This document shows positions 17,091 through 61,815 of a stretch of 64,000 bases of DNA, one piece after another (the first letter of the stretch is position 1; the number at the start of each line of letters is the position of its first letter). The position numbers and the translations under genes were made by a program. Source of the DNA: Clostridia bacterium (lineage in GTDB: Bacteria > Bacillota > Clostridia > Oscillospirales > CAG-272). Location: the NCBI GenBank assembly GCA_017398145.1, contig JAFQHD010000108.1:4456-68455 (forward strand), written 5' to 3'. Under the pieces are notes generated by a model that saw only the letters and a program-made list of their open reading frames with translations, was not told where the DNA came from and searched no databases.

Positions 17091-18944
17091 ATGAAGATTA
17101 TAAGAAATATACTTTTCGGGGACAGGCATCCTCTGTTACGCAGTGCCTTGTCGGTGCTGATACACGTTCTTTGCCTTATGACCCTGGACGTATCCTTCAG
17201 GGTCATATATGAGAAGAACAACACCTCTCCCTTGCCGGACTTGGTCCCCTTTTACACCTCTCTTTTCTGGTGTATAATATTAGCGGGCTTTGCTCTTATA
17301 TTGCCACGGATACTCAGACGTATATACGTCATTGTGACAACTCTGTTCTTTGGCGTACTGGTTATAGTTCACGCCTGTCTTGACAGCTTTTTCGGACAGT
17401 ATATGTCCTTTTCTTCTGTCATGTTTGCGGATGACGGCGCGGCATTCTTTGACCTGTCCTATTTCAAGATACCTAAGAAGCTTATAGCGCTTATCTTGCT
17501 GAGTATAGTGCTGTCTGTTATTGCAGCTCTTATTCTTGCAAAAAGTAAGAAATATCTTATTTCTGCCCTTGCCGCAATCCTCTTGGTCGCCGTAGGTATT
17601 ACGGGAATAGCTCTGTACAGCAACAGCTATTTCAAGGGCGAGAGCGGTGGTATAACCTGGGAGAGCACCAAGAGCCCCGCAGATCATTACGACGATTTTT
17701 CGGATTATCATCTCTGCATGCATATGTGCGGACTATATCAGTATACCTTCCGTGATCTGTACGTAAGCACGGGTGCGGTGGATACCGTAGAAAAGCTTAT
17801 AAACAAGGGACGTATAGACGAGCTTGATGAATATTATTCCTCAAAGCCCATTGATCCCGATAACGAAATGACGGGTATCTTCAAGGACAAAAATCTCCTG
17901 CTTGTTCAGCTCGAATCGATAGATACCTGGATGGTCAACGAGGTGTCTATGCCCTCCCTTTATTCGGTAACGAACAAGGGTATCAATTTCACGAGCTTCT
18001 ATGCTCCGAAATATCTTTGGGCATCCACCTTCAATACCGAGAACGTGGTGAATACGGGGATGATATCTCCTATGAACTCCTCCAAGACCGGATATTTTAC
18101 CAAGACCGATTATCCCTATTCCATGCCCAATATGTTCAAGGCAGAGGGATATACCGTAAACAGCTTCCACCGAAGCGGCAGAGGGATCTATAACCGCGGT
18201 GACGTTCACGAGAACTGGGGATATACCAAGTATTACAGCGGGGCAGAGATGAAGCTCAGCGACCTTGATATGGATTCGGCTCTCATAGAGGCGTACGATA
18301 TGTATGCACCCGCAGAGAGGTTTATGTCCTTTATAATCACCTATACGGGACACGGTCCCTATAACGCCGAACACGAGGCGGTAAAGAAATACGAGGATAT
18401 AATAAGACCGAAGCTTCCCGAGGACGCAGAGGACGAGTATGTATGGGCTCTCTGTTACGCTTACGAGACTGACGTATTCATCGGCTCTCTTATCGAGAAG
18501 CTGGAGGCAGAGGACAGACTCAAGGATACGGTGCTTATCTTCTACACCGACCACTATGACCACTATGTGACGGATAATGCCATACTTACCAAGTATAAGG
18601 GGACCTCGGATACCAACCTGATGTGCAACGTGCCCTTCGTTATATATTCCGAGGAGCTTGAGCCCATGACGGTGGATAAGGTCACGGCTACATATGACAT
18701 CCTGCCTACGGTGGTAAACCTTTTCGGTATGGATAACGACGGCAGATACTATATTGGTAACGATGCCTTTTCGGATAACGGAGGATACGTAATCTTTGCA
18801 GACCGTTCTTGGTATGACGGAAGCGTATATTCCAAGAGCGATACAATGTCCTTTGATCTGATAGAACAGCGAAGCACCGAGATCGACGAAAGGCTTAACG
18901 CCTGCTGGGATTCGATTAAATTTGATTATTTTAAAGATAAATGA
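17091..18944 (+). CDS. LTA synthase / sulfatase-family membrane protein
   Basis: About 5 N-terminal TM helices, then an extracellular alkaline-phosphatase/sulfatase-like domain (LESID, YTGHGPY, FYTDHY). Confidence 0.75.
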   Translation: MKIIRNILFGDRHPLLRSALSVLIHVLCLMTLDVSFRVIYEKNNTSPLPDLVPFYTSLFWCIILAGFALILPRILRRIYVIVTTLFFGVLVIVHACLDSFFGQYMSFSSVMFADDGAAFFDLSYFKIPKKLIALILLSIVLSVIAALILAKSKKYLISALAAILLVAVGITGIALYSNSYFKGESGGITWESTKSPADHYDDFSDYHLCMHMCGLYQYTFRDLYVSTGAVDTVEKLINKGRIDELDEYYSSKPIDPDNEMTGIFKDKNLLLVQLESIDTWMVNEVSMPSLYSVTNKGINFTSFYAPKYLWASTFNTENVVNTGMISPMNSSKTGYFTKTDYPYSMPNMFKAEGYTVNSFHRSGRGIYNRGDVHENWGYTKYYSGAEMKLSDLDMDSALIEAYDMYAPAERFMSFIITYTGHGPYNAEHEAVKKYEDIIRPKLPEDAEDEYVWALCYAYETDVFIGSLIEKLEAEDRLKDTVLIFYTDHYDHYVTDNAILTKYKGTSDTNLMCNVPFVIYSEELEPMTVDKVTATYDILPTVVNLFGMDNDGRYYIGNDAFSDNGGYVIFADRSWYDGSVYSKSDTMSFDLIEQRSTEIDERLNACWDSIKFDYFKDK

Positions 18945-19760: not shown

Positions 19761-19820
19761 AATTCTCAATTCTCAATTCGTAATTAAATGTGAAAAGTCG
19801 GTTCATTTGAACCGACTTTT
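19761..19820. repeat. Heptad array (AATTCTC x2, AATTCGT, AATTAAA) plus a bidirectional terminator hairpin
   Basis: 7-nt repeats at 19761-19788. Hairpin AAAAGTCGGTTCA-tt-TGAACCGACTTTT at 19793-19820. Confidence 0.85.
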
Positions 19821-20224
19821 CAATTTCTATCAAAATATTCATAGCACGCGAAGCGGATCACATCCTCGGTTACATTGAAATGCTCTGCCAATTCCCATAC
19901 CTCGGTGATGCCTTGGGTAAACGCCTTCTCTAAATTTCCCTTTGGCAAAATATGCTCGATCATCCACATATTTGCCTTATGTTCGCAGCGGCTTCTGGTC
20001 TCAAGGGGAGAGTAGGGTCGGTAGAAGGCTCCCGTCATACAGTGGCCGATCTCGTGAGCAAGATGAACCTTGCGCTCAGGCTCCGTCATATCTCCTTCAT
20101 CCATGATTATATATTTTTCTTTCCCGTCCTCGAAGGATACAGACTTATTAAGCGGCAGTCTGCAATAATCGAGGACTATTTCATTTTCATCACAAAACAC
20201 TGCACATTGTGTGCTTGTTCTCAT
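19820..20224 (-). CDS. ImmA/IrrE-family metallopeptidase
   Basis: HEXXH motif (HLAHEIGHCM). 134 aa, immediately downstream of an XRE repressor gene. Confidence 0.85.
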   Translation of the reverse strand: MRTSTQCAVFCDENEIVLDYCRLPLNKSVSFEDGKEKYIIMDEGDMTEPERKVHLAHEIGHCMTGAFYRPYSPLETRSRCEHKANMWMIEHILPKGNLEKAFTQGITEVWELAEHFNVTEDVIRFACYEYFDRN

Positions 20225-20231
20225 TTGATTA

Positions 20232-20564
20232 CTACTCCTCTTTACTGTGTCTTTTCTTTATCAGCTCTACGGCAAACATAGCTTCCTTCCACATTTCGTC
20301 GGTGACCTCTCCGTCCCCCCCGAATAGAGCAAGCTTGATATCGTTATCGGTGACAGTGCTCTTTGCTGCAGATTCCTTGCCCGTTGTCAGATAGTCGAGA
20401 GAAACACCGAAATGGTCGGCTATCTTTTTAAGCTTATCCTGCTTGGGGGTGGATTTTCCGTTCTTCCAATCGCTGATAGTGGCGGGGGCTATACCCGTGG
20501 CTTTACATACCTGATATGCGGTCATACCGTTCTTTTGTAACAATTCAACAAAAATCTCATACAT
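20232..20564 (-). CDS. XRE/ImmR-like HTH repressor (110 aa)
   Basis: HTH segment MTAYQVCKATGIAPATISDWKNG. Paired with the ImmA gene. Confidence 0.85.
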   Translation of the reverse strand: MYEIFVELLQKNGMTAYQVCKATGIAPATISDWKNGKSTPKQDKLKKIADHFGVSLDYLTTGKESAAKSTVTDNDIKLALFGGDGEVTDEMWKEAMFAVELIKKRHSKEE

Positions 20565-20598
20565 TTTTTGTACGCTCCTACAAAACCGAAAATTATTA

Positions 20599-20775
20599 AA
20601 GAAATCTTACATAAACCCATTGACATTTTCGGAAAACCGATATATAATTTGTTGTAGAGTTTAAGAAATCTTAACTAAACGGGGCTAAGATTTAATATTT
20701 CCGAAATCATTGTATCAGATTTCCGAAGTATTGTCAAGATAAATTTTAAGATTTCTTAAAATTACTTTTCGGTAT
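20599..20775. promoter_or_regulatory. Divergent control region: consensus promoter plus two families of repeated operator-like motifs
   Basis: TTGACA at 20620-20625 and TATAAT at 20643-20648 (17-nt spacer, plus strand). TAAGA-AA-TCTTA at 20599-20609 (partial), 20662-20673 and 20747-20758. TTTCCGAA/TTCGGAAA at 20626-20636, 20697-20707, 20719-20729 and 20765-20775. Confidence 0.7.
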
Positions 20776-20869
20776 AAGAACGAAACAAACCACTCATTTG
20801 CTTCGCTATAAATTTTAGTACAATACATGTCCAAAATATGGGACAGAAAGGAGGAAAAGCTTGGCATAC

Positions 20870-20950
20870 ATGTGTGTAAAAGGGCCATATGAATGTGACG
20901 CGTGCGGTTTCTGCACAAAGAACGAGGATAACGAAGAAAGTGAGGAGTAA
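20870..20950 (+). CDS. Possible Cys-rich micro-ORF (26 aa, or 29 aa from the TTG at 20861)
   Basis: MCVKGPYECDACGFCTKNEDNEESEE. AGGAGG at 20849-20854 sits 6 nt before the in-frame TTG. The ORF ends 2 nt before the next gene. It is below the ORF-track cutoff. Confidence 0.3.
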   Translation: MCVKGPYECDACGFCTKNEDNEESEE

Positions 20951-20952
20951 AA

Positions 20953-21261
20953 ATGAAAAATATTGATTTCAATAAAGTTATAATAACCGGCAAAGCCAAG
21001 GAGAATCCTGAGTTAAAACTGACTACAACAGGTATAGCTGTAACAAATTTCATCCTTGTAAGCGAGGGTGTCAAATCAAATGAATATATAGATGTTACCG
21101 TATGGGGAGAGCTTGCGGAAAAGGTGTATAAGGAAATAGACCCCGACCGACGGATAATGGTGGAGGGGAGGCTTCACCGTACTGCCTCGGAGGAGGGCTC
21201 CTACGGAAGACTTGAGATCACGGCAAACCGAATATTCGGAATAGGAGGAATGTATGATTAA
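20953..21261 (+). CDS. SSB-like OB-fold protein lacking the acidic C-terminal tip (102 aa)
   Basis: Pattern N(K/R)VxLxG ... ELR.T..G..V..F.LA ... W typical of the SSB core (NKVIITGKAKENPELKLTTTGIAVTNFIL ... VTVWGELAE ... VEGRL). GAGGAG RBS. Confidence 0.65.
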   Translation: MKNIDFNKVIITGKAKENPELKLTTTGIAVTNFILVSEGVKSNEYIDVTVWGELAEKVYKEIDPDRRIMVEGRLHRTASEEGSYGRLEITANRIFGIGGMYD

Positions 21262-21466
21262 GTACACAGAGGATATATATACTACCTGTCCCTTTTACCT
21301 CAAGGAGGCGAGCTCACGCCTCATCTGTGAGGGGATCCCTGAGGGAACAAGTAACGTAACCGTATTCACGAACAGCCTTCTCAAGGCAAGACATCAGAAC
21401 AGATATTGCCGTAATGATTACGGTGCCTGTGCTCTGTGTAAAGCTTTAATGAGTAAATATGACTAA
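21254..21466 (+). CDS. Hypothetical Cys-rich protein (70 aa)
   Basis: Overlaps the previous gene by 8 nt. Six Cys residues. I recognise no family. Confidence 0.5.
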   Translation: MIKYTEDIYTTCPFYLKEASSRLICEGIPEGTSNVTVFTNSLLKARHQNRYCRNDYGACALCKALMSKYD

Positions 21467-21500
21467 AGAGGTTTTGAGCCTTGTGCTCAAAACCTCTTTA
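21464..21500. terminator. Perfect 16-bp bidirectional terminator that includes both convergent stop codons
   Basis: TAAAGAGGTTTTGAGC-cttgt-GCTCAAAACCTCTTTA. Confidence 0.9.
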
Positions 21501-22175
21501 GTCATTTAAGCTGATCTCCAACCCATCATACGCAACCTCAATACCGTAGGGCTCAAGGTCACGGCAGATAATATCATGGTCGTCGTGAAGTCCGCAGGAC
21601 ATATGGCTTATGCAGAAACGCTTGATATGCTCCTTGAGAGTTTTTTTCATTTCAATGACCATATTGATATTGTTATGCTCAAAGATACGGTAGTCGCCGT
21701 CCTGATGGCCTACGGTGCAGTCAAGGACGATAAGATCAACGGGAGCGGTATCTATTATCATCTGCACCTCATCGTAGAGAAGCCATGCGGAGTCGAGAGC
21801 GTAATAGATCTTACTCTCTCCGTCGTCAAAGAGATAGTGCTTTGTGGGAACACGGTGATGACCCGTTGAGGCTTTGATCTTAACATCTTCAAGGATTATC
21901 TCATCATCAAATTCAATGAATCTTGCACCCTTTGATTCAAGAAAAGTAAGGGTATCCGAATTAAAATGATCCTTATGCTTATGGGTGTTGATGATATATT
22001 TTATACTTTCGGGAGCAATACCGAATTTTTCAAGAGCGTAGGGAACGGTAGGCCCGGGATCGATAAGGATAGTGTCGTTTATAAGAGCAGAAGCGTTGCC
22101 TCTGTATTCGTCGCCGTGGTCACGGCGCTCAGGCGACCAGTCGGCGGCACCTGTGCCTAAAAATCTGATTTTCAT
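21498..22175 (-). CDS. MBL-fold metallo-hydrolase (225 aa)
   Basis: HxHxDH motif (THKHKDH). Confidence 0.8.
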   Translation of the reverse strand: MKIRFLGTGAADWSPERRDHGDEYRGNASALINDTILIDPGPTVPYALEKFGIAPESIKYIINTHKHKDHFNSDTLTFLESKGARFIEFDDEIILEDVKIKASTGHHRVPTKHYLFDDGESKIYYALDSAWLLYDEVQMIIDTAPVDLIVLDCTVGHQDGDYRIFEHNNINMVIEMKKTLKEHIKRFCISHMSCGLHDDHDIICRDLEPYGIEVAYDGLEISLND

Positions 22176-22876
22176 AATATATAGTCCTCCCCGTCATTGG
22201 GGTAGAGAACTGTAAAAGCTGCTTTTTGTGCTTTGATGTTCTCATATTTTTCAGGCGGCATAACATGTACGAATGCCACCTTATCAACCTTTAACTTATT
22301 GCATTTTGAAACAACCGTTTCGGCATCAAAGTGGGCAGCTTCTATAATAAGCATATCAGCCTCAATATCCGGAAGATCGATTAGTGAAGGAGAAAGATCG
22401 CTTGTGATATAAACCCTCCTGCCTTCGGCTTCGATAAGAAAGCTGTAACAGGGAAGACCCTTCATATGATCGTTCTGATATGAAGTTACCTTAAGTATAC
22501 CGTCATCATAGAAAATTCCTTCCTTGATGAGCTTAAAATTAATTCGGGTGCTGTCCTTATTGCCTAATTGCATATAGGTATAGGTCTTAAATGCATCTAT
22601 ACCCCTTTCCTCCGAGAGATAAATATCACAGCGGATATTAAAGAATTCCGCTAAATTTATCATATCGTTAAGACCGTTCATATGGTCACCGTGGAGGTGG
22701 CTTATAAAGACGGTCTTTATCCGTGACATATCATATTGGGAAAAGGACAGAATGTCGGTTACAGGCGCACCTGCATCAAAGAGGTAGGCGTTTTCGCCTA
22801 CCTCTATAAGGATGCTTTGCTGATGTCGGTTTTTATAAGGGGCACCGAAGCCGGTGCCCAGAAATCTTATATTCAT
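22172..22876 (-). CDS. MBL-fold metallo-hydrolase (234 aa)
   Basis: HxHxDH motif (SHLHGDH). ATGA overlap with the downstream paralog and TAATG overlap with glnA. Confidence 0.8.
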   Translation of the reverse strand: MNIRFLGTGFGAPYKNRHQQSILIEVGENAYLFDAGAPVTDILSFSQYDMSRIKTVFISHLHGDHMNGLNDMINLAEFFNIRCDIYLSEERGIDAFKTYTYMQLGNKDSTRINFKLIKEGIFYDDGILKVTSYQNDHMKGLPCYSFLIEAEGRRVYITSDLSPSLIDLPDIEADMLIIEAAHFDAETVVSKCNKLKVDKVAFVHVMPPEKYENIKAQKAAFTVLYPNDGEDYIL

Positions 22877-24300
22877 TACAGGTTGTAATATTTGTCGAAC
22901 TCAGCAGGATTAGGAATCTTGGCAAGCTCTGCACATTCTGCACGCTTAGCTGCGATGAAGTTCTTTAAGAGCTCCTCGGGGAATACACCGCCCTCTGTGA
23001 GGTAATCGTGGTCAGCCTCAAGGCAGTTGAGGGCCTCGTCAAGAGAGGTGGGAAGATGGCTGAGCTTAGCCTTCTCCTCGTCGCTTAAGTGATAGAGGTT
23101 CATATCGTAAGGACCCCAGCCGTTGGCGTGAGGATCGATCTTGTTCTTAACACCGTCAAGACCTGCCATAAGGATAGCCGCATAGCAGAAATAGGGGTTA
23201 CAGGTAGCATCGGGGTTGCGGAGCTCAAAGCGGCGCTTGTCGGGAGACTTTGCATAAGCGGGAATACGGATAACTGCACTTCTGTTGGAGGTAGCGTAGC
23301 CAACGGTTACGGGAGCCTCAAAGCCGGGAACCAGTCTCTTGAAGGAGTTGGTACTGGGGTTGGTCAGAGCACAGAGAGAGCCGATATGCTTGAGAAGACC
23401 GCCCATAAAGTAGTGAGCTGTTTCGCTTAAGTTAGAATAACCGTTATCATCAGAGAATACGGGCTGTCCGTCCTTAAAGAGGATCATATGAACGTGCATA
23501 CCGCTGCCTGCCTCACCGTAGATGGGCTTGGGCATAAAGGTTGCGGACTTGCCGTACTTAAGAGCGGTGTTGTGGATGATATATTTGATCATCATTGTAG
23601 CATCTGCCATATGAACGACCTCACCCAGCTGAGGCTCTATCTCGAACTGACCGGAGGCAGCAACCTCGGGATGGTGATAGTTTATCTCGATACCCATATC
23701 CTTCATAAGCATACACATCTCGGAGCGGCACTCGTAGGAGATATCAAAGGGCTTTGCAATATGATAGTTCTTCTGCTTGGGAACTACAACGCCCTTACCC
23801 TCAACTGCGCTGTTCCAGTAGGACTGAACGGCGTCAACGGAAGCTGCGATCTGTCTGCCGCTTACCTCCCAGGCAACGTCGTCGAAGAGGTAGAACTCAA
23901 ACTCGGGAAGTATCTTCATTGTGTCTGCAACGCCGGATTTTTTCATATAGTCAACGGCAGCACGGATGATGTTACGGGGATACTGTGCCAGAGGCTTGTT
24001 TTCGGGGGAAGCGATAACCATCGCGTTACCTGTCATGGACAGGGTGGGGATAGAGCAGAAGGGGTCAATAACTGCGGTGTCGGGGTCGGGGATAAATACC
24101 ATATCGCTCTTCTCAACAACCGCATAGCCGTAGTTGGAGGCGTCAAAGCCGATACCCGACTTCATTGTGTCCTCAGAGAAGTTTTCTGCGGGGATGGTAA
24201 CGTGACGGTACTGACCGTTGATGTCAACCATCTTGAAGTCTACCATCTGGATGTCTTTTTCTTTGATAAAATTGAGTATGTCCTGAATGATCTTTGCCAT
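22876..24300 (-). CDS. glnA: Glutamine synthetase, type I
   Basis: 474 aa with GS beta-grasp and catalytic domains (GSGMHVHM, NPSTNSFKRL, RIPA...RFELRNPD). Confidence 0.92.
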   Translation of the reverse strand: MAKIIQDILNFIKEKDIQMVDFKMVDINGQYRHVTIPAENFSEDTMKSGIGFDASNYGYAVVEKSDMVFIPDPDTAVIDPFCSIPTLSMTGNAMVIASPENKPLAQYPRNIIRAAVDYMKKSGVADTMKILPEFEFYLFDDVAWEVSGRQIAASVDAVQSYWNSAVEGKGVVVPKQKNYHIAKPFDISYECRSEMCMLMKDMGIEINYHHPEVAASGQFEIEPQLGEVVHMADATMMIKYIIHNTALKYGKSATFMPKPIYGEAGSGMHVHMILFKDGQPVFSDDNGYSNLSETAHYFMGGLLKHIGSLCALTNPSTNSFKRLVPGFEAPVTVGYATSNRSAVIRIPAYAKSPDKRRFELRNPDATCNPYFCYAAILMAGLDGVKNKIDPHANGWGPYDMNLYHLSDEEKAKLSHLPTSLDEALNCLEADHDYLTEGGVFPEELLKNFIAAKRAECAELAKIPNPAEFDKYYNL

Positions 24301-36287: not shown

Positions 36288-39200
36288 TTATTCTACCGTG
36301 AAATTAACACGGTCGTATGTTCCGTCAATATATCTTACGTAGAGCGTATATTCACCTGCAGGGAGAGCTGCGCCATAGGTGTAGATGTTGCTGTCACCTA
36401 ACTTTGCGCTCGTCATACCGTAGTAGAGGTTGTTCTTGACCTCTCTGTAGGTGGAGTGTATTCCCTTGCCTATGTAGAGATCCTTGATATTTTCAAGGTC
36501 GCAGATATACGTACGTTTACCGTCGGATACGATTGAAGGAGTATCTGCAAGGGTTACCTTCACGCTTGCCTTTCTGAAGCTGCCGTTGTAGCTGCCGATA
36601 GTCAGAGCCGCAAACTCAGCGCCTGTTCCTTCGTAAGTGATGTCGGTAATATTACAGCCGTCAAAGGTTCCCTGTGCTATCTCAGTTACGTCCTTTGTTA
36701 TCTTAACGCTTGTGACGTTGGTTCCTCTGAACGCCTTTGCGGCGTTGTCGGTAGCAAGAGTTACCTCGCCCGTGAGGTTTGTACAGCCGTCAAACGCCTG
36801 TGTCAGATCCTCGATGCCGATAAGCTCGGGAGCGGAGGTAAGAGCAGTACACTTATAGAAGGCACCCTTAAGTATCTTAACACTTTCGGGAAGCTCGGGA
36901 GTCTCTGTAAGAGAACTGCATCCCCAGAATGCGTAGGTCATATTCTCTACTCCTTCGGGTATCGCGGGAGCAGATGTGAGAGCCGTACAATTCTTAAAGG
37001 TATTGTAAAGCACCTTTACACCCTCGGGAATTGCGAGAGCCTCGGTCATATTGGTACAGCCTGCAAAGGTCTTATAGAGCTGTGTTACGGGAAGTCCGTT
37101 GACCTCTGCTTCTATTGCACCGTAGGAGCTCAGAGTCTTGTCGTTTACTACTGCGTTCCAACCCTCGGGTGCGCCTGTTGCGTGATTGCTGTAATAGGTG
37201 TAGGTGTAATCACCGATAACCACCTGCTGACCGTCGGTGGGCTGAGCCGCACCGCAGGCACATACGCCGTCAATATAGATATGTCCGGTCACAGGCTCCT
37301 TTTCGGTATTGGAATACTCGTATACGTAATTTTCTTCACAACAGCCGTTTATGATATTACGGTATACGATATCGCCCTCTGCGTTGAGAGTGGGATATTC
37401 GTCTGTACCTATAGTCTGCGTCCAAACGGTAGGGATCACGGTTCCTATATATTCCCAGGTCTCCTCGTCGTAAACGTCCTCCTCGGGCTGAGCCGACTGG
37501 AGTAACCAGGTTATTTCACCGCTTGCTAACTGCTCTGCAGTTCTGCCGCCTTTGTCGTTGGCTTCAATCGCAAGATAATAGCTGTTGGTAAAGTCTTGTG
37601 CTATCTGGTTCTTCGTCGAGAAGTAGCCTGACTCAACGATACCGAGATTAAGACAGTTGGCTACGGGGTTGCCGTCACTGTTTCCTGCAATACCGCCCGT
37701 GTTGATAGTACCTGTAATATGTCCGGTATTGATACAGTTTACGATCTCACCGCTGTACATATTGCCGACGATACCGCCGGTGGAGCTGCCGGAATGATAG
37801 AAGCTTACGTCACCTGTATTGCTTGACTTGTAGATACCGCCGCCTATAAGGTAACCCACGAGACCGCCCATATCTCCCGATCCCACTACGGTCAGATCCG
37901 AGTGACAGTTGGTGATCACACTTTCGGCATTGGCAATAAGCGAGCCGACTTCACCGTCTGCTCTTAAATAACCGTTGGTGAGCTTGATGTTGGAAATGGG
38001 GTAATTATACATTGTGTTACCGAAAAGACCTGCCATATCCGCCTCGGGATCGTTCATATAAAGACCGCTTACCGTATGGTTGCGACCGTCAAAGGAACCG
38101 GTATAATAAGCATAGCCTTTACCGATGGGAGTCCAACTGCGAAGCTCGACTGCAGTGTCCTCTGCAGAGTAGCTTCCGTCCTGAGCAAATGTATAGCCGG
38201 GGTTAAGGTCGATGTCGGCTGTAAGCACTGCGTCACCGGTCACGGTGTTCCAGGTGTTAACGCTTCTTGCAAACCAGAAGAGATGTCCCGCCTTGGAAAT
38301 TTCGTAACGGTAGTTTTCTTCATCGAGATAAGCAGGCTCGTAGCCGCCGCATATTACGCAGAAGCCTTCTGCATCAAAGCTGTGGGCTTCGGTAGTGCTG
38401 TCGCACGCACCGCATACGCATACAAGCCAATGCTCGGTGTCGTTAAAATCATATTCAGCAAAATCGTGAGGCTCGGTGATTATCTCGCTGTCACAGCATA
38501 CGTGATATAAAGTATGAGTTCCCGTTTCCTCGTCGTAGAGGTAATAGGTCTCCTCGCTTGTATGGTTGTTCATATCGTAATCACCGAAGGAGTTGCCGCA
38601 GGTGGTACAATATTGTCTGTTCTGACAATCTGCCTCGTGTCCTGAGCAGGGCTGAGTTTCGGTGACGTTATACATCTCACATACCTCGCGTGTACAAACG
38701 TATCTGATATGATAAGCTTCACCCTCTACCGCCGTCCACTCAGAGGGAACGTGATAGCTGTCCTCTTCACTTAAAAGAGGAGTGTTGGAGTAATACATAT
38801 TCGTATTACCGCAGTCGTAGCCTGCGTAAACGGTTGCACCGCCAAGCACGGGGTAAGGATCGGTTCCGATGCTCTGTCCCCAGCTTTCGCCCAGAAGGTA
38901 AGCAACCTCTCCCGACTCAAACTGTTCAGAGGTCTTTGCACCGTTATCGTTTTCGGTATCTGCAAGATAATAGCTGCCCTCGGGACATATGCCGCTTGTG
39001 ATACCGCCGATCTCGCCGCTGTCGGTTACGGCGTTTGCCATACTGAAGCAGTTGTTTATCGAAGCCGAGCTGTCATTCATATTGGTACGCGCACCGACGA
39101 TACCGCCGACACCGCTGACGCCGCTGACATCGGTATTAATAACGAAGCAGTTTGTGATCTCGGATGCAGAGATACCTGCAATACCGCCTACCGAGTTTTC

Positions 39201-41948
39201 ACCGTTGATATAGGAATTGATTATACCGAGGTCTTTTATGATACCGCCCTCGCCCAGTACTCCGATAAAGCCGGTATAATATTCGTCGCGGTCAATATAG
39301 AGACCGGATACGGTGTGGCCGTTACCGTCAAAGGTACCGCCGTATCTGAAATTGTAAAAGTCATAGCCGATGGGAGTCCACTCTTCAAAGGTAACTCCCT
39401 CGGTATCAAAGGGTATGTCGTTTATAACGATATCAGCCATAAGTCTGCCGTTGACTCTTGCAACGCCGTCGTCGTAAACGTAACGGTTTATAAAGTCGGC
39501 AAACCAGTAGAGCTGACCCTTGTTGTATATCTCGTAATATCCGTCTTCTGCTAAGTGTGCAGGCTGTAAGCCGCATATCTCGCAGTAGCCGTCTTCGCTG
39601 TAGTGTTCCTCGGTGTTATACGCTTTTTCGTTGGTGTAGCCTATAGCTTCACCTGTTGAACAGAGCTTACCGTAATATACGGTATCTCCTTCAAATACGG
39701 GATATGCATCCTCACCTAAGGTCTGCTTCCAGCTTCCGTTATGGCTTTCACCGTTAAGGATCCAGGTCATCTCACCCGAAGTAAACTGCTCTGCAGTTCT
39801 GCCGCCTTCCGCCGTTTCGGTATCCGAGAGGTAGTAGCAGTTATCGACCGTAGGACTGTTATATCTGTAAGCTGCTATCTGCGCAACGTTATGATATCCT
39901 TCAACACTTCCGATGTTATAGCAGTTTTGCACGCCGGACTTGTTGTGATAACCTACGATGCCGCCTGCATCTGATTCATAATTCGCGGTCGTTCCCACAA
40001 CACTGCCGCTGTTATAGCAATCAGCGATCTCAGTACGGTAGTTGCTGCCTGCAATACCGCCTAAGTGGTACCATCCGGTCACCAGCCCCGTGTTATAGCA
40101 GCGGTATATCTTTGCTGTTGCCTGATAACCCGTGATACCGCCCGCACCTCCGCCTATGCCGGAGACAACGGTTGAGTTGCTGTGACAGTTATATACGGTG
40201 CTTGAGCTCTGTCCCGCTATAGCTCCTACGCTTTGGTTACCGCAAAAGTAAGAATCGGTAACGCCGAGATTGCGGATAACGCTTCCCGAGTGGGTATATT
40301 TGAACAGACCTATCTTATTATGGTTTGGATCATTATAGTATAATCCCTTGATATCATAGCCCCGTCCGTCAAAGATGCCTCTGAACTCATCAATGGGTGT
40401 CCATTCAAAGAGATTCGAGCCGTCTCCGATAAGCTCGCCGTTTTCATCTATTACCTTGCTGTTTACGGTAACGTCGTTGGTGAGAACGGCGTTTGCCCTT
40501 GGATTTTTCAATTCGTTGGGGAGAGTACCGTTTACGAGTGCCGCAAACCAATAGAGCTGACCTTCGTCACTTATCTCATATACGGAATCCTTTGCTCCGT
40601 CGTCGTTGACGTCGTATTTATCGGTAGTCAGCTCAGCGGGCCAAAATGTGATACCGTAATCGCCTATCTCGGTACCGATAAGATCGCTTGTGTTTCCTTT
40701 GATAAGACCGTAGTTTATGATCCTTCCGTTGTTGACGATATTGCCTTGAACGTCAAGGGTAACACCCTCTTCGATAAAGAGAATCTGATCTGCACCTATT
40801 GTCAGGGTATTGTCCTTGTTGACCGTCAGATCCTCGTAAAGGAAATATTTGTCCCGGTAAAGCGCGCCGTTCCCGTTCTGAAATACTATACCTCCGGTGA
40901 TAGAGGTCGTTACCGCAGAGCCATTTCCACTCTTGCCGATAGGTTCAGCGTCGGCTCCCGAGGTTGCAACAACGATTCCGCCCGTAATATTAACGTTACC
41001 CGGCGCCGTGTCTGATTTGGCAGGGCCGCTGCCGATAGCTGCACTGGCCCATAACGATGTAGCGCCCGACGCATTTACCCTGCCGCCGGATATGGTTATA
41101 TTACCGCAGGAACCCATGTAACCTCCGCCTATTGCGGCTCCCGCCCAACTAAACGTAGCCGTAGCAGTTACGTTGCCTCCGGTTACGGTTATGGTTCCGC
41201 CGGATCCTTCCTTACCGCCGCCGATGCCTGCGCCTGAGCCGTCGGACCGTGCAGTTATATTACCGCCGTTTATGGTGATGCTCTCACCGTTGCCCCCGTC
41301 GCCTCCGCCGCCGATAGCAGAGCCGTATAAAGAAATCGTTGCAACGACCGTACCGCCGTTTATGGTTATGGTACCGCTGTTGCCTCGCCAGCCTCCGCCG
41401 ATAGCAGCAGCGTGACTATTACCGTTAGATGTAACGGTACCTCCGTTTATGGTAATGGTTCCGCCGTTGCCGTCTTTACCACCGCCGATGCCTGCACCTG
41501 TACTGCTGGCCTGTACGGTTATGTTGCCACCGTTTATTGTGATGACCCCCGCACCGTTTTGGTTGTTGCCGCCGATAGCCGCCTGGTCATCGCCGGCACC
41601 GGCAACGATCTTTCCTTGCTTACTCGGATCTGCCGAAACGGCATAGATCGTAAGGCTGTTTCCCGAGTTTACTGCAATACCTGCGTTCGCCGTAAGAACG
41701 GCGTTATCTGCAAGGATGATATTACAGCTGCCGCTTACCGATATACGGGTGTCTGTAGTGAGGCTTCCCCTCACCAGCCACCACCCCTCGGAAAGGGTAG
41801 CTTCGCCTGCATAGACCTTATAGTCGGTGCAGGTCTGCTGATTTCCGTCTGCATCGATATACGTAATACCGTCTGCCGCAAAAGCGTAAAAGGGTATCAT
41901 ACCGATGAGCATTACTGCCGCAAGTAAAATACTGATAAGCTTTTTCAT
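36288..41948 (-). CDS. Giant secreted surface protein (1886 aa): beta-solenoid repeats, GLUG-motif modules, Cys-cluster linkers, C-terminal BspA-type LRRs
   Basis: Signal peptide MKKLISILLAAVMLIGMIPFYAFA. About 29-aa Gly-rich repeats (ITINGGxxT...GGG). Four modules with (Q)LYWFAxxVN followed by repeated GGIAG/GGIVG (GLUG-like). C-terminal LRR_5-like repeats (FxxCTxLTSAPxIPEGV). No LPXTG or SLH anchor seen. Confidence 0.85.
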   Translation of the reverse strand: MKKLISILLAAVMLIGMIPFYAFAADGITYIDADGNQQTCTDYKVYAGEATLSEGWWLVRGSLTTDTRISVSGSCNIILADNAVLTANAGIAVNSGNSLTIYAVSADPSKQGKIVAGAGDDQAAIGGNNQNGAGVITINGGNITVQASSTGAGIGGGKDGNGGTITINGGTVTSNGNSHAAAIGGGWRGNSGTITINGGTVVATISLYGSAIGGGGDGGNGESITINGGNITARSDGSGAGIGGGKEGSGGTITVTGGNVTATATFSWAGAAIGGGYMGSCGNITISGGRVNASGATSLWASAAIGSGPAKSDTAPGNVNITGGIVVATSGADAEPIGKSGNGSAVTTSITGGIVFQNGNGALYRDKYFLYEDLTVNKDNTLTIGADQILFIEEGVTLDVQGNIVNNGRIINYGLIKGNTSDLIGTEIGDYGITFWPAELTTDKYDVNDDGAKDSVYEISDEGQLYWFAALVNGTLPNELKNPRANAVLTNDVTVNSKVIDENGELIGDGSNLFEWTPIDEFRGIFDGRGYDIKGLYYNDPNHNKIGLFKYTHSGSVIRNLGVTDSYFCGNQSVGAIAGQSSSTVYNCHSNSTVVSGIGGGAGGITGYQATAKIYRCYNTGLVTGWYHLGGIAGSNYRTEIADCYNSGSVVGTTANYESDAGGIVGYHNKSGVQNCYNIGSVEGYHNVAQIAAYRYNSPTVDNCYYLSDTETAEGGRTAEQFTSGEMTWILNGESHNGSWKQTLGEDAYPVFEGDTVYYGKLCSTGEAIGYTNEKAYNTEEHYSEDGYCEICGLQPAHLAEDGYYEIYNKGQLYWFADFINRYVYDDGVARVNGRLMADIVINDIPFDTEGVTFEEWTPIGYDFYNFRYGGTFDGNGHTVSGLYIDRDEYYTGFIGVLGEGGIIKDLGIINSYINGENSVGGIAGISASEITNCFVINTDVSGVSGVGGIVGARTNMNDSSASINNCFSMANAVTDSGEIGGITSGICPEGSYYLADTENDNGAKTSEQFESGEVAYLLGESWGQSIGTDPYPVLGGATVYAGYDCGNTNMYYSNTPLLSEEDSYHVPSEWTAVEGEAYHIRYVCTREVCEMYNVTETQPCSGHEADCQNRQYCTTCGNSFGDYDMNNHTSEETYYLYDEETGTHTLYHVCCDSEIITEPHDFAEYDFNDTEHWLVCVCGACDSTTEAHSFDAEGFCVICGGYEPAYLDEENYRYEISKAGHLFWFARSVNTWNTVTGDAVLTADIDLNPGYTFAQDGSYSAEDTAVELRSWTPIGKGYAYYTGSFDGRNHTVSGLYMNDPEADMAGLFGNTMYNYPISNIKLTNGYLRADGEVGSLIANAESVITNCHSDLTVVGSGDMGGLVGYLIGGGIYKSSNTGDVSFYHSGSSTGGIVGNMYSGEIVNCINTGHITGTINTGGIAGNSDGNPVANCLNLGIVESGYFSTKNQIAQDFTNSYYLAIEANDKGGRTAEQLASGEITWLLQSAQPEEDVYDEETWEYIGTVIPTVWTQTIGTDEYPTLNAEGDIVYRNIINGCCEENYVYEYSNTEKEPVTGHIYIDGVCACGAAQPTDGQQVVIGDYTYTYYSNHATGAPEGWNAVVNDKTLSSYGAIEAEVNGLPVTQLYKTFAGCTNMTEALAIPEGVKVLYNTFKNCTALTSAPAIPEGVENMTYAFWGCSSLTETPELPESVKILKGAFYKCTALTSAPELIGIEDLTQAFDGCTNLTGEVTLATDNAAKAFRGTNVTSVKITKDVTEIAQGTFDGCNITDITYEGTGAEFAALTIGSYNGSFRKASVKVTLADTPSIVSDGKRTYICDLENIKDLYIGKGIHSTYREVKNNLYYGMTSAKLGDSNIYTYGAALPAGEYTLYVRYIDGTYDRVNFTVE

Positions 41949-54525: not shown

Positions 54526-55299
54526 ATGGAAATTATCGATACCCACGCTCATTACGATGACAGCAGGTTCGATGGTAATAGAGATGAGCTTATAGCCGAT
54601 GTTTTAAACATCGGCTATATCCGAAATATCATCAACTCATCCTATTCTATCGATTCCGCAAAGGTAGCAAGAGAGCTTTCAAGAAAATATCCGCAGTTCT
54701 ATTTTACCGCAGGCATACACCCCCACGACAGCGGAAAGGCAGGGGATAGGGATCGAGCACTTTTTGAGCTTGAGGGACTGCTGCGTGACCCTAAATGTGT
54801 TGCGCTCGGCGAGATAGGTCTTGACTATCATTACGATTTTTCAGACCGTGACACACAGAAAAAATGGTTTGAGTGGCAGATGCAGTTAGCTGACCGTCTG
54901 GGCGTTCCCGTTGCCATACACGACCGTGAGGCTCACGGCGACTGTATGGATATGGTAAGAAAATATCCCGAGGTCATAGGCGAGTTTCATTCCTTCTCAG
55001 GTTCGGCAGAGATGGCAAAGGAGCTGGTCAAGAGAGGGTGGTATATCTCCTTTTCCGGAGTAATAACCTTCAAGAACGCTTCAAAGATTCTTGAAGCGGT
55101 AAAGGCAGTACCCCTTGACCGCATAATGATAGAAACAGACGCTCCCTACCTTGCTCCCGTACCCAAGAGAGGTAAGGACAACAACTCCGCCTATATGAAG
55201 TACACAGCAGAGGCGGCAGCCAACGTGCTGGGTATGGACGTAGAGGAATTCTGTGCGGCAACCACCGAGAATGCCAAGAGACTTTTCGGCATTAAGTGA
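54526..55299 (+). CDS. tatD: TatD-family metal-dependent hydrolase
   Basis: DTHAH N-terminal motif, plus later HDRE and ETDAPY motifs. Confidence 0.9.
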   Translation: MEIIDTHAHYDDSRFDGNRDELIADVLNIGYIRNIINSSYSIDSAKVARELSRKYPQFYFTAGIHPHDSGKAGDRDRALFELEGLLRDPKCVALGEIGLDYHYDFSDRDTQKKWFEWQMQLADRLGVPVAIHDREAHGDCMDMVRKYPEVIGEFHSFSGSAEMAKELVKRGWYISFSGVITFKNASKILEAVKAVPLDRIMIETDAPYLAPVPKRGKDNNSAYMKYTAEAAANVLGMDVEEFCAATTENAKRLFGIK

Positions 55300-55331
55300 A
55301 TAGAGAATAGTGAATAGAGAATAGTGAATAA
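55297..55331 (+). repeat. Heptad array TGAATAG/AGAATAG x5 bridging the tatD stop and the next start
   Basis: TGAATAGAGAATAGTGAATAGAGAATAGTGAATAA. The tatD TGA is the first repeat unit. Confidence 0.9.
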
Positions 55332-56852: not shown

Positions 56853-57929
56853 TTATCTTTTAACTCTTGCGTTACCGCCCCAGATGGACCAGACCTGATC
56901 CTCATCCATGGGCTGTGCGTAGTCGGTTAAGAATGTGGTCGCCATAGCACCTGTAGCCCAACCGAACTGTATCCACTTCTCGGATTCCCAACCCTTGAGA
57001 ATGGAGTAGAGAAGACCGCCTACAAAGCCGTCACCGCCGCCGATACGGTCAAGTACGGTGATATCTCTGGGTTCAACCACGTGCCAATCGTCGCCTGCGA
57101 GGAGAATTGCTCCCCAGAGGTGATGATTTACGCTGATGACCTGACGAAGGGTGGTAGCAAATACCTTTGCGTTGGGGAACGCTTTTCTTACGTTCTCGAT
57201 CATACCCTTGAAACCGTCGATCTTAGCGGCAATATCCTTGCCGCCTGCCTCGGGACCCTGAATGCCTAAACAAAGCTGGAAGTCCTCCTCGTTACCGATA
57301 AGGATATCGGAAACGGAAGCGATCTCGGTGAAGATATCGTGGAGCTCCTGCTCTCTGCCTTCCCAGAAGGAAGCGCGGTGGTTTAAGTCAAAGGAAATAA
57401 GTGTGCCGTACTTCTTTGCCGCTCTTGCAAGCTCAAGACAGAACTGGCTTGTCTCGTGAGAAAGAGCGCCGATAAGACCGGAGAGATGGAGGATACCAAC
57501 ACCCTCCTCGCCGAAGATACGGTCAAGGTCAAAGTCGTTTATATTAAGTGTACGTCCTACCTCGCCTGCACGGTCGTTGCATACACGGGGACCACGTGCG
57601 CCGTAGCCGCTGTCAGCAATGTTGAACTGATGACGGTAACCCCAGGGGCCGCCCTGAGGAACCTCAGGACCTTCAAAATCCATGCCTCTGGAACGAAGAT
57701 CGCGCTTGATAAACTCTGCTATGGGGCTGTCCTTAACGAAGGTGGTAAGCACCTTTGTGGGTAAGCCCAGGTAAGCGGAGATAGATGCAACGTTGGTTTC
57801 CGCTGAGGTAGCCTGCATCATAAACATATTGCTTGATGCAACAGGCTGACCGTTAGGAGGGCAGATACGAACGCCCATACTGGTGGGAACGACAAGGCTG
57901 TATTTACAATTATCTTTAATCTTTAACAT
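56853..57929 (-). CDS. PfkB-family sugar(-acid) kinase (KdgK-like)
   Basis: Ribokinase-like fold with the C-terminal motif DRIGGGDGFVGGLLY. 358 aa. Confidence 0.8.
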   Translation of the reverse strand: MLKIKDNCKYSLVVPTSMGVRICPPNGQPVASSNMFMMQATSAETNVASISAYLGLPTKVLTTFVKDSPIAEFIKRDLRSRGMDFEGPEVPQGGPWGYRHQFNIADSGYGARGPRVCNDRAGEVGRTLNINDFDLDRIFGEEGVGILHLSGLIGALSHETSQFCLELARAAKKYGTLISFDLNHRASFWEGREQELHDIFTEIASVSDILIGNEEDFQLCLGIQGPEAGGKDIAAKIDGFKGMIENVRKAFPNAKVFATTLRQVISVNHHLWGAILLAGDDWHVVEPRDITVLDRIGGGDGFVGGLLYSILKGWESEKWIQFGWATGAMATTFLTDYAQPMDEDQVWSIWGGNARVKR

Positions 57930-57944
57930 TTTACTTTCTCCAAT

Positions 57945-58110
57945 CGTTATTCACTATTCGTTATTCTCTATTCACTATTCACTCTTAAAAAGCATCAGTG
58001 AATAATGAATAGTGAATAGTGAATAGATAATAGTGATGGTTGAAAACTGTTGCTTTAATGCAACAGTTTTCTTCCTTAATTTTGCATTTTTTATTTTGCA
58101 TTTTGCATTT
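57945..58110. repeat. Composite element B: inverted heptad arms, TGGTT, 12-bp hairpin, TTCCTTAAT, (TTTGCAT)n
   Basis: CTATT-type arm 57945-57983 and GAATAG-type arm 57997-58036. Hairpin GAAAACTGTTGC-tttaat-GCAACAGTTTTC at 58042-58071. TTTGCAT repeats at 58081-58110. Confidence 0.9.
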
Positions 58111-58120
58111 TTACAATGCT

Positions 58121-59572
58121 TTACGCATTGTAAATGGTTGCCGCAGTATCGCCGCCCATGCCGGTCCAGTTGGTGTGGAAGAACTCGCCTCTGGGGCAGT
58201 CAACTCTCTCGTAGGTGTGAGCACCGAAGTAGTCTCACTGAGCCTGGAGCAGGTTTGCGGGAAGTCTGTCACAGCGGTAGCCGTCATAGTAGGTGAGAGC
58301 TGTAGCCATAGCGGGAGCGGGAATACCGTTGGTAAGAGCTGCCGCACATACACGTCTCCAGCCTGCCTGAGCCTCGTCGATGATACCCTTGAAGTAGGGG
58401 TCAAGAAGGAGGTTGGTAAGCTCGGGATTAGCGTCAAATGCTTCCTTGATCTTACCGAGGAACACGCTTCTGATGATACAGCCGCCGCGCCACATAAGAG
58501 CTATGCCGCCGTAGTTGAGGTTCCAGCCGTAGGTCTTAGCTGCGGTTCTCATAAGAGCGTAGCCCTGAGCGTAGGAGATGATCTTGGATGCAAAGAGAGC
58601 GGACTTGATATCCTTGATAAATGCTTCCTTGTCACCCTCGAACTTAGGCTCGGGACCGGTTAAGATCTTGCTTGCCGCAACTCTCTCTTCTTTGATAGCA
58701 GACAGACATCTGGAGTAAACAGCCTCACCGATAAGAGTCAGCGGAACACCCTCGTCAAGAGATGCGATAGCAGTCCACTTACCTGTACCCTTCTGTCCTG
58801 CGGTGTCAAGGATTTTTTCTACTATGGGCTCACCGTCTTCATCTTTATAAGCTAAAATATCACGGGTGATCTCGATAAGGTAACTGTCAAGCTCCTCCTC
58901 GTTCCACTTAGCAAATACCTCGTGCATTTCGTCGCAGGACATACCGAGGTAATTCTTCATTATCTGATAAGCTTCGCAGATAAGCTCCATATCACCGTAC
59001 TCGATACCGTTGTGTACCATCTTAACGAAGTGACCTGCGCCGCCTTCGCCAACCCAGTCACAGCAAGGAGAGCCGTCCTCTACCTTTGCACAGATAGCCT
59101 GGAAGATAGGCTTAACAAAGGGCCATGCTGCGGGAGAGCCGCCGGGCATCATGCTGGGGCCGTTAAGTGCGCCCTCTTCACCGCCGGAAACACCGGTACC
59201 GATGTAGAGAAGACCCTTAGACTCAACGTACTGCGTTCTTCTGATAGTGTCGGGAAAGTGGGAGTTACCGCCGTCGATAATGATATCGCCTTCTTCAAGG
59301 AGGGGGATAAGGGTCTCGATCATAGCATCAACAGCAGAGCCCGCCTTGATCATCATCATAACCTTACGGGGCTTTTCGAGAGAAGCAACAAGCTCCTCAA
59401 GGCTGTATGTGCCGACTATATTTTTGCCGGCAGCACGACCTTCAACGAAGTTCTTTACCTTTTCTGTAGTTCTGTTGTATACGGATACGGTAAAGCCCTT
59501 GCTTTCCATATTCATAACAAGATTTTCGCCCATTACGGCGAGGCCGATAAGACCGATGTCTGACTTTTTCAT
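58121..59572 (-). pseudogene. gnd: 6-phosphogluconate dehydrogenase (decarboxylating) interrupted by one in-frame TGA (58235-58237)
   Basis: 445 codons (GLIGLAVMGENL ... LPANLLQAQ), then TGA, then 37 more in-frame codons ([37 protein letters not shown]) that continue the conserved Gnd C-terminus. Confidence 0.85.
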
Positions 59573-59600
59573 GATTGTCTCCTATATAATTAATTATTTT

Positions 59601-59749
59601 TTATTCGGTTATTAACTATTCACTATTCGTTATTCACTATTCACTAACTATCGGTTTTATATAACAAGTGAATAGTGAATAGAGAATAGATAATAGTGAA
59701 TAGTGATGGTTGAAAACCGCCAAAGCGGTTTTCTTCCTTAATTTTGCAT
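59601..59749. repeat. Composite element C, with the same architecture as element B
   Basis: Arms at 59601-59646 and 59668-59706. Conserved GTGATGGTTGAAAAC. Hairpin GAAAACCGC-caaa-GCGGTTTTC at 59712-59733 (stem differs from B, pairing kept). TTCCTTAATTTTGCAT at 59734-59749 overlaps the PHP stop codon. Confidence 0.9.
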
Positions 59750-60586
59750 TCCCTCTAATACCGAATAGGGAATTGTCATATTTCCTAATCCTTTTCCGAT
59801 GGAAATATGAGGCTTGAACGCACCGTGGAAATCGGTGCCGCCTGAAATTGCAAGACCAAGCTCTGCTGCCATTGCTTGATACTCCTCTTGCATCTCGGGA
59901 GTGTAGTCTGTGTAGTAGCCCTCAACACCATAAAGACCCTTCGCCTTTAATCGGGTGAGGAAAGCCTTGAGTTCATCGTGAGGCTTGCGGGTAAGATGCA
60001 GATGAGCTACAAACGCCTTACCCCCTGCCTGATTTATAAGCTCTACACATTCTTCATCTGTCAGAGCCTGTCTGCCAGAATAAGCGGGTCTGCCGTTGGC
60101 AAGATACTTGTCAAAGGCTTCTCTTACCGACTCGCAGTAGCCCTTCTTTACCATTATTTTTGCAAAGTGGGCGCGACAGAGCACATCTGTCTCGGCTATT
60201 TCCTCAACCTCGTGCATTGTAACGTCAAAACCAAGTCCACGGAGCTTTTCGCATATCTCTTCTTCTCGCTCGATACGCACCTGACGCACATATTTGAGCT
60301 TTTCGAGAAGAACCTCGTTATTAATGTCTATAAAATATCCGAGGATATGGGTTTCGGTATCAGATTCTGCCGAAAGCTCTATTGCAGGGATGACCTCAAT
60401 ACCGATACGCTCGCCTTCAGCCACCGCCTCGGCAACACCCGAAAGGCTGTCATGGTCGGAAAGTGCAATAGCGGAGATACCCTCCGCCTTTGCGTGGCAT
60501 ACCAGCTCTGTAGGAGTCATAGAGCCGTCCGAATATATCGAATGTGTGTGTAAGTCTATTATTTTTTCCATAATCATAAGGTCCAA
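59738..60586 (-). CDS. PHP-domain metal-dependent phosphoesterase
   Basis: DLHTHSxxSDG N-terminal motif and the later motifs SDHD and GGTDFHG. Confidence 0.85.
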   Translation of the reverse strand: MDLMIMEKIIDLHTHSIYSDGSMTPTELVCHAKAEGISAIALSDHDSLSGVAEAVAEGERIGIEVIPAIELSAESDTETHILGYFIDINNEVLLEKLKYVRQVRIEREEEICEKLRGLGFDVTMHEVEEIAETDVLCRAHFAKIMVKKGYCESVREAFDKYLANGRPAYSGRQALTDEECVELINQAGGKAFVAHLHLTRKPHDELKAFLTRLKAKGLYGVEGYYTDYTPEMQEEYQAMAAELGLAISGGTDFHGAFKPHISIGKGLGNMTIPYSVLEGMQN

Positions 60587-61815
60587 AGTCCGAGAGCGGG
60601 ATTGCTGATATAGAATATCTCCTCACCGTCAATAGTATGGAAGCCGTCTGTCAGCACCTTGGGGTCATACTTCTTTGTGATCTCGTCGTAGGGAATATAC
60701 TTAAAGTTGACTCCCTCAACCTCTTCCTTGCCTATCTCCTTTGTACAGTAGGTGATAGAGAAGCGGTCATCGCTTGAACCGTGGATAAGATGAGCCGCAA
60801 CAGAGAGGTTCTGCTTGAGATCGTCATGCTCTTTTACAAGCTCAAGAACCTTTTCTCTGCCGACATAGCCGTACTTACGGATAAGACGGTCGTTTTCATC
60901 GTCCTCACCGAACTTCTTTACAGCAGGCGCAAGGATGATAAGCTCGCCCTCATCGGCGATAGCCATACGGGTACGGTAAACCGCCTTGTTGCCAAGCCAT
61001 GTGCTCTTGAACTCACGGGGATCGAGGTAAACAACTACCTTCTTAAGAGGCTTGTCCATCTTGTTGAGGTTGGTGCCCTGGCTGTTCTTTACCGCCATCT
61101 CAAAGAGCTCACGCTTTCTGCCTATATACAGACCGTGGATGAAGGTATCGTCCCCCTTGTTTGTGGTAACGGTAAGAACGTACATAAGCGGAACGTCTTT
61201 CAAAAAGTTTTCCTCAGCGTAGTCAAACACCTTACGTACAGGGGAGAAATCCTTGCCCATAATACGCTCCATACCGTAGAAGGCACCCAGCATATGGGAA
61301 GAGTTTATCATAGAGGAGCCGCCGCAACCAACGAAGATGTTCTTGGAGTAGTTAGCCATACCCACTACCTCGTGGGGAACTACCTGACCTGCGGAAATGA
61401 TAAGGTCGTACTTTTTGTCCATAATACGGCGGTTGACCTCAACATCGATCTTATCGGTAACAAGACCCTCGGAAACCTCTGAAACAAATTCACCGGGAAC
61501 CTCGCCTAACTTTATAACATCGGTCTTCCAGTTGTGTACAAGTATCTTTTCGAAGGGAACGTCTGCACCGAAGAACGCCTTGCATTCAGCCTCGGTCATG
61601 GGTTCGTGAGTGCCGAGGGCAGGCATAATGTCAACCTCGCACTTGTCCTTTAAAAGATCGTAATAAATTTCGGTTATCTTGCCTGCGCCCGAATACATAC
61701 GGGTGTAGTCGGGAGGCAGAATTAGAACCTTTTTCAGATCCTTGCCCTCAAGGGATTTTGCAAGAGCCTCGCGGAGCTCGGTATCATTTAAGCCTTCTTT
61801 GCTTTCGTAAAACAT
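60574..61815 (-). CDS. LarA-like (lactate racemase domain, DUF2088) protein
   Basis: GTH motif, then PH-x9-K-x15-H (PHEVVGMANYSKNIFVGCGGSSMINSSH). As I recall it, this spacing matches LarA His174/Lys184/His200. Confidence 0.7.
   Translation of the reverse strand: MFYESKEGLNDTELREALAKSLEGKDLKKVLILPPDYTRMYSGAGKITEIYYDLLKDKCEVDIMPALGTHEPMTEAECKAFFGADVPFEKILVHNWKTDVIKLGEVPGEFVSEVSEGLVTDKIDVEVNRRIMDKKYDLIISAGQVVPHEVVGMANYSKNIFVGCGGSSMINSSHMLGAFYGMERIMGKDFSPVRKVFDYAEENFLKDVPLMYVLTVTTNKGDDTFIHGLYIGRKRELFEMAVKNSQGTNLNKMDKPLKKVVVYLDPREFKSTWLGNKAVYRTRMAIADEGELIILAPAVKKFGEDDENDRLIRKYGYVGREKVLELVKEHDDLKQNLSVAAHLIHGSSDDRFSITYCTKEIGKEEVEGVNFKYIPYDEITKKYDPKVLTDGFHTIDGEEIFYISNPALGLWTL

Follow-up and report, generated by a model that had tools for sequence, protein, structure and literature searches.

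An in-frame TGA at the Arg446 codon of a clostridial 6-phosphogluconate dehydrogenase gene, probably a very young nonsense mutation

What does it mean when a stop codon stands in frame at an invariant position of a well-known enzyme gene, and everything after it is intact? The question arises in the 64,000-nucleotide stretch of DNA analysed here (the window), where the minus strand at 58121–59572 holds a 483-codon gene for 6-phosphogluconate dehydrogenase (gnd) that is interrupted by TGA at codon 446 (58235–58237). The stop could be a real mutation, a mistaken base, or a codon that is translated. Comparison with same-strain contigs and with more distant homologues, together with the behaviour of TGA elsewhere in the genome, allows these readings to be weighed against each other.

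The interrupted gene and its product

The coding strand around the stop reads CTG CTC CAG GCT CAG TGA GAC TAC TTC GGT GCT CAC. The gene starts with an ATG at 59572–59570 (minus strand), and beyond the TGA it continues through 37 unbroken tail codons (58234–58124) to its natural TAA (58123–58121). The list of open reading frames gives a 445-residue gnd product that terminates at the codon-446 TGA. An earlier note on this DNA had reported the in-frame TGA and the intact 37-codon tail, and its coordinates and sequence proved accurate on comparison with the sequence, the open-reading-frame list and the homologues. In the features that follow, L002 and L003 are same-strain contigs from two independent metagenome assemblies, L001 represents a separate species-level relative with 96% identity in Gnd, and P0133 is the closest public protein.

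58238..59572, minus strand: gnd codons 1–445, NADP-binding and helical domains; a listed open reading frame with residues 1–445 identical to P0133
58235..58237, minus strand: premature TGA at codon 446 in place of AGA (Arg446); L001, L002 and L003 have AGA
58237: variant base, A on the plus strand and T on the coding strand, read from the sequence
58124..58234, minus strand: 37 tail codons, now untranslated, including the equivalent of His452; 0 nucleotide differences from L002 and L003
58121..58123, minus strand: original TAA stop of gnd, read from the sequence

The interrupted gene is a genuine gene and not a chance reading frame, since its 37-residue tail matches P0133 completely, with 37/37 residues and every nucleotide the same. 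P0133 has Arg at position 446 and is identical to the conceptual window Gnd at the 482 other residues; its gene occurs on two contigs that come from different samples, ERZ27256761 k141_1235159 (135.7 kb) and ERZ28654157 scaffold_281 (95.2 kb). Against the profile for decarboxylating NADP+-dependent 6-phosphogluconate dehydrogenase (TIGR00873, cut-off 426.7 bits), the shortened product scores 716.7 bits, above the cut-off, with a match that reaches no farther than profile position 441 of 467, and the reconstructed full protein (P0133) scores 776.3 bits. The gnd homologues carry PF03446 and PF00393.

The stop falls at a position that does not vary. In alignments with solved 6-phosphogluconate dehydrogenase structures it coincides with Arg446 (sheep numbering), the Arg of QAQRDYFGAH, and an Arg within LLQAQRDYFGAH occupies this position in all 125 full-length (483-residue) homologues retrieved. 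The assignment of the stop to Arg446, made in the earlier note, is thus confirmed by both comparisons. [quoted passage not shown] The encoded 445-residue product is without the complete tail that carries these two substrate-binding residues.

Truncations of the yeast enzyme provide the nearest guide to the consequence. Yeast Gnd1 1–454, 1–450 and 1–436 are soluble and dimeric, with activity that is not detectable (He et al. 2007, PMC1919378); these three constructs, deltaC35, deltaC39 and deltaC53, have lost the tail that passes through the partner subunit. The window product, 1–445, lies between yeast 1–450 and 1–436 and, like 1–436, is without both Arg446 and His452. The yeast proteins were made in the laboratory from a eukaryotic enzyme, to which the window protein is nevertheless close (685.9 bits to 2p4q). 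Because the 1–445 product is without Arg446, His452 and the tail, it would be expected, by extrapolation from yeast, to form a soluble but inactive dimer.

Among solved structures the window Gnd is nearer to the animal enzymes, with human (709.8 bits) and sheep (702.4 bits) as best matches and yeast at 685.9 bits, and it scores lower against the bacterial structures from Geobacillus (626.7), Lactococcus (585.6) and E. coli (578.3 bits). It bears the long animal-type tail, ...HTNWTG.GG....YNA.

Origin of the stop codon

Codon 446 is AGA in L002, in L003 and in L001. Since both same-strain contigs and the more distant relative agree, AGA is the ancestral codon, and the stop arose by a transversion, A to T as the gene is read and T to A at 58237 on the plus strand. 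The earlier note had proposed a C-to-T transition from CGA to TGA and had suggested comparison with other metagenome-assembled genomes; that comparison, now made with the two same-strain contigs, gives AGA in both, and the proposed transition gives way to a transversion. Among the Arg codons of the genome AGA is the commonest, with 248 AGA versus 44 CGA.

The comparison with k141_1235159 extended over positions 7091–64000 of the window, from the flanks of gnd, of the gene for a 1,886-residue protein and of a sulfatase gene. Within these 56,910 nucleotides there are 10 substitutions and 0 indels (99.98% identity). Three of the substitutions are synonymous and lie within 16 nucleotides of the sulfatase gene (17819–17834), three are non-synonymous and lie within 42 nucleotides at the start and N-terminus of glnA (24249–24290), and one falls in a gene overlap. 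The three near gnd are the nonsense change itself, a synonymous ATC/ATA difference in gnd codon 357 and, in the PHP gene next to it, a replacement of Arg by Cys; gnd thus differs from its same-strain copies at 2 positions in 1,452 nucleotides. All three window differences in the stretch from 48 to 64 kb are private to the window. The two groups of clustered differences have the appearance of short recombination tracts or of consensus effects in a mixture of strains.

Given this divergence, the perfection of the tail carries little information. At 10 differences in 56,910 nucleotides, 0.02 substitutions would be expected in the 114-nucleotide tail whether it is translated or not, so that its conservation says nothing about function or read-through; the conserved tail, from which the earlier note drew its three options, is no evidence of retained function. 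What the intact tail does show is a recent date for the event, or for the error. Nor is a nonsense change surprising in itself. Of the possible single-base coding changes in the genome, 4.0% create a stop; ten coding substitutions drawn at random would include one or more nonsense changes with a probability of about 0.34, so that one among the 10 differences is unremarkable and needs no special mechanism. One such mechanism, template switching at a quasi-palindrome (CTCAGAGAG to CTCA-G-TGAG), was considered and rejected: the arms are just 4 bp long, show no extension and look like chance.

The stop was sought elsewhere with a degenerate nucleotide pattern encoding QAQ-TGA-DYFGAHT, and the same pattern with NGA served as control. 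The TGA pattern has 0 matches among 185,579 GTDB species representatives and 0 matches in a collection of metagenome contigs, where the control gives at least 120 hits; among the control matches listed, 61 have CGA and 60 have AGA, and there is nothing else. A 36-mer specific to the strain, in which any base was allowed at the variable position, has 0 matches among the GTDB species representatives. The exact 445-residue Gnd is not on record in the collections searched, which do not include the window's own assembly, and exact-product look-ups of the window-private PHP Arg-to-Cys and GlnA alleles found neither on record. The TGA allele is thus unique to this assembly.

Decoding of TGA and the competing explanations

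In this organism TGA serves as an ordinary stop codon, and the genetic code is standard. Among 59 complete genes in three sister-contig stretches, 36 end in TAA, 18 in TGA (31%) and 5 in TAG, and the genes that terminate in TGA end where their homologues end. An example is the TGA-terminated Lar_N gene, whose product has 413 residues both in the window species and in L001. Across the 59 genes called, in 57 kb, no second in-frame TGA is needed in a conserved gene. Folding of the 91 nucleotides that span and follow the UGA reveals no SECIS-like or read-through-stimulating hairpin (z = +1.32; 187 of 200 shuffled sequences fold at least as well). The 64-kb window contains no suppressor tRNA, tRNA-Sec or tRNA(UCA); its sole tRNA, tRNA-Pro(CGG), is also its only Rfam match at gathering thresholds. 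At the homologous position none of the 125 homologues has Cys, Sec, Trp or Gly; every one has Arg.

These observations bear on two ways in which the TGA might be read as sense. An altered code (codes 4 or 25) or a selenocysteine codon has the in-frame TGA alone in its favour and is effectively refuted: 18 of 59 genes terminate in TGA at the ends of their homologues, the other conserved genes in 57 kb have no in-frame TGA, the homologous residue is always Arg, the sister genomes carry AGA, and neither a SECIS-like hairpin nor the corresponding tRNAs are found in the window. Bacterial selenocysteine recoding and programmed UGA read-through share with this locus an in-frame UGA and, beyond it, an open and conserved frame. 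Unlike them, the window has no SECIS-like structure, Arg and not Cys as the homologous residue, a stop that is not conserved in relatives (GTDB representatives and metagenome contigs), and TGA as a frequent terminator. Neither recoding nor selenocysteine nor an altered genetic code finds support in this locus.

Leaky decoding is a different matter, although it too is very improbable. A near-cognate tRNA for Arg or Trp, or a suppressor, could produce some full-length and partly active Gnd, the frame past the UGA is open as far as the natural stop, and tRNA-Trp misreads UGA at a low level in Firmicutes. The open frame is uninformative, however, given the few changes to be expected in the tail, and insertion of Trp in place of Arg446 would not bring back phosphate binding. 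Against functional read-through, the last of three options raised in the earlier note, stand the Arg codon of the same strain and of all homologues, the common use of TGA as a stop, the failure of the stop to recur in two collections, in one of which the control gives at least 120 hits, and the want of either a stimulatory structure after the UGA or a suppressor tRNA in the window. Were leaky decoding to occur, the allele would be a hypomorph that is tolerated, as opposed to a null, and a natural instance in which leaky termination buffers a fresh nonsense mutation in a gut Clostridia species. Separate translation of the tail was also considered and rejected: after the TGA there is no start with a ribosome-binding site, and the sole ATG lies 9 codons before the natural stop.

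The other two options of the note, a recent nonsense mutation and a sequencing or assembly error, survive. The reading favoured here, at a probability of about 0.6, is a very young private nonsense mutation that has made gnd a nascent pseudogene. A single A-to-T transversion at 58237 (coding strand) would have turned AGA (Arg446) into TGA; translation would terminate after residue 445, TGA being an ordinary stop; and the product, lacking Arg446, His452 and the tail with which each subunit completes its partner's 6-phosphogluconate site, would be inactive. An intact orthologue is present in very close relatives, one base apart at the stop, as is usual for the nonsense pseudogenes that bacterial annotation labels "internal stop". 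Such genes likewise owe a premature standard stop in a conserved gene to a single base, have intact orthologues in near-identical genomes and are without recoding signals. By comparison with them the window gnd is unusually young, with no secondary decay and with one other, synonymous, difference.

An error at this one base of the consensus would leave exactly the same picture. If the organism truly has AGA, the T could be a miscall or a minority variant in the consensus of a metagenome-assembled genome, and sequencing, consensus or assembly error is accordingly a serious possibility, though a doubtful one. It would explain why the TGA allele was not met independently among GTDB representatives, metagenome contigs or in the 445-residue look-up, a point that counts against a real mutation; the two further same-strain assemblies concur on AGA, the differences at 48–64 kb are all private to the window, and the residue affected is an invariant catalytic one at which selection would normally purge a true mutation. 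At so low a divergence, on the other hand, selection has barely had time to remove real nonsense alleles, and the expected share of nonsense changes (4%) is similar for errors and for real mutations. The window assembly looks accurate, since it shows no indels and few substitutions against k141_1235159, six of them in two tight clusters as in real variation. Because the differences are clustered and indels are absent, genuine differences between strains, cleanly assembled, fit better than random error, and we infer that the base is probably real.

Repeats, neighbouring genes and the setting of gnd

The gene is bracketed by repeat elements, as the earlier note had observed, and paralogous copies are now recognized in both intergenic regions. 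A one-armed heptamer array lies farther downstream.

59594..59750, minus strand: upstream repeat element in the PHP–gnd spacer; folding energy -50.5 kcal/mol, z = -9.7
57935..58102, minus strand: downstream repeat element in the gnd–pfkB spacer, a paralogue of the upstream copy; -53.3 kcal/mol, z = -9.9
55295–55331: one-armed heptamer array between the TatD stop and the radical-SAM start, read from the sequence

Each element is about 130 nucleotides long and consists of AATGCAAAATTAAGGAAGAAAAC, then a short G+C stem-loop, then a long hairpin formed by the opposed heptamer arrays (CACTATT)n and (AATAGTG)n. In the short stem-loop the stem sequence varies among the copies and the pairing is kept. 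Rfam yields no match for the elements at gathering thresholds. Both are present, and identical, around the intact gnd of L002 and L003, and on that account they were rejected as the cause of the stop. Since they occur in the same-strain contigs and are absent from L001, they are a recent gain. They may be mobile elements of the MITE or REP type, terminators or operator arrays. The last codons and stop of the PHP gene (...GMQN*) are supplied by the upstream element (59738–59750), and a 23-nucleotide motif at the end of that gene recurs exactly after gnd, at 58066–58088. The L001 PHP protein ends otherwise (...NNMKIKHKEI*), just before the gnd start and with no element between.

Other parts of the window deserve brief comment. 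At 19800–22900 two tandem genes for MBL-fold hydrolases have precomputed Pfam hits to Anti-Pycsar_Apyc1, and this Apyc1-like pair adjoins small HTH, M78-peptidase (ImmA/IrrE-like) and SSB genes; these genes may be the remains of a prophage or form a counter-defence islet. The 1,886-residue protein encoded at 36288–41948 (minus strand) has faint Pfam hits to Beta_helix_3 and LRR_5 alone and is probably a large surface protein. It is identical in both sister assemblies. A third contig has PfkB and sulfatase proteins identical to those of the window but neither P0133 nor the 1,886-residue protein, and belongs to a more divergent strain.

Around the stop the genes follow one another as Dus, Lar_N, PHP, gnd, PfkB, an order that L001 shares. 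The Lar_N protein scores 650.6 bits against NF052594 (nickel-dependent putative hexonate epimerase; cut-off 500), and the PfkB protein resembles KDG-type sugar kinases, with scores below their cut-offs. The cluster at 56853–61815 therefore comprises a LarA-family nickel-pincer enzyme, a PHP-family phosphatase-like protein, gnd and a KDG-kinase-like PfkB. [quoted passage not shown] In such a setting gnd may be dispensable, so that its loss may be tolerated; in the case of a true nonsense mutation, the loss would probably be tolerated while hexonates are not in use.

The kind of event is an ordinary one, a very recent single-base nonsense change or a base-call error in the gene of a well-known enzyme. 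For annotation, gnd should be flagged as an internal-stop pseudogene in this assembly, or the base verified; the importance of the finding beyond that is small. If the mutation is real, the strain has just lost the step of its hexonate cluster that leads from 6-phosphogluconate to ribulose 5-phosphate, and could exemplify, on a small scale, how an accessory pathway is being lost in a population.
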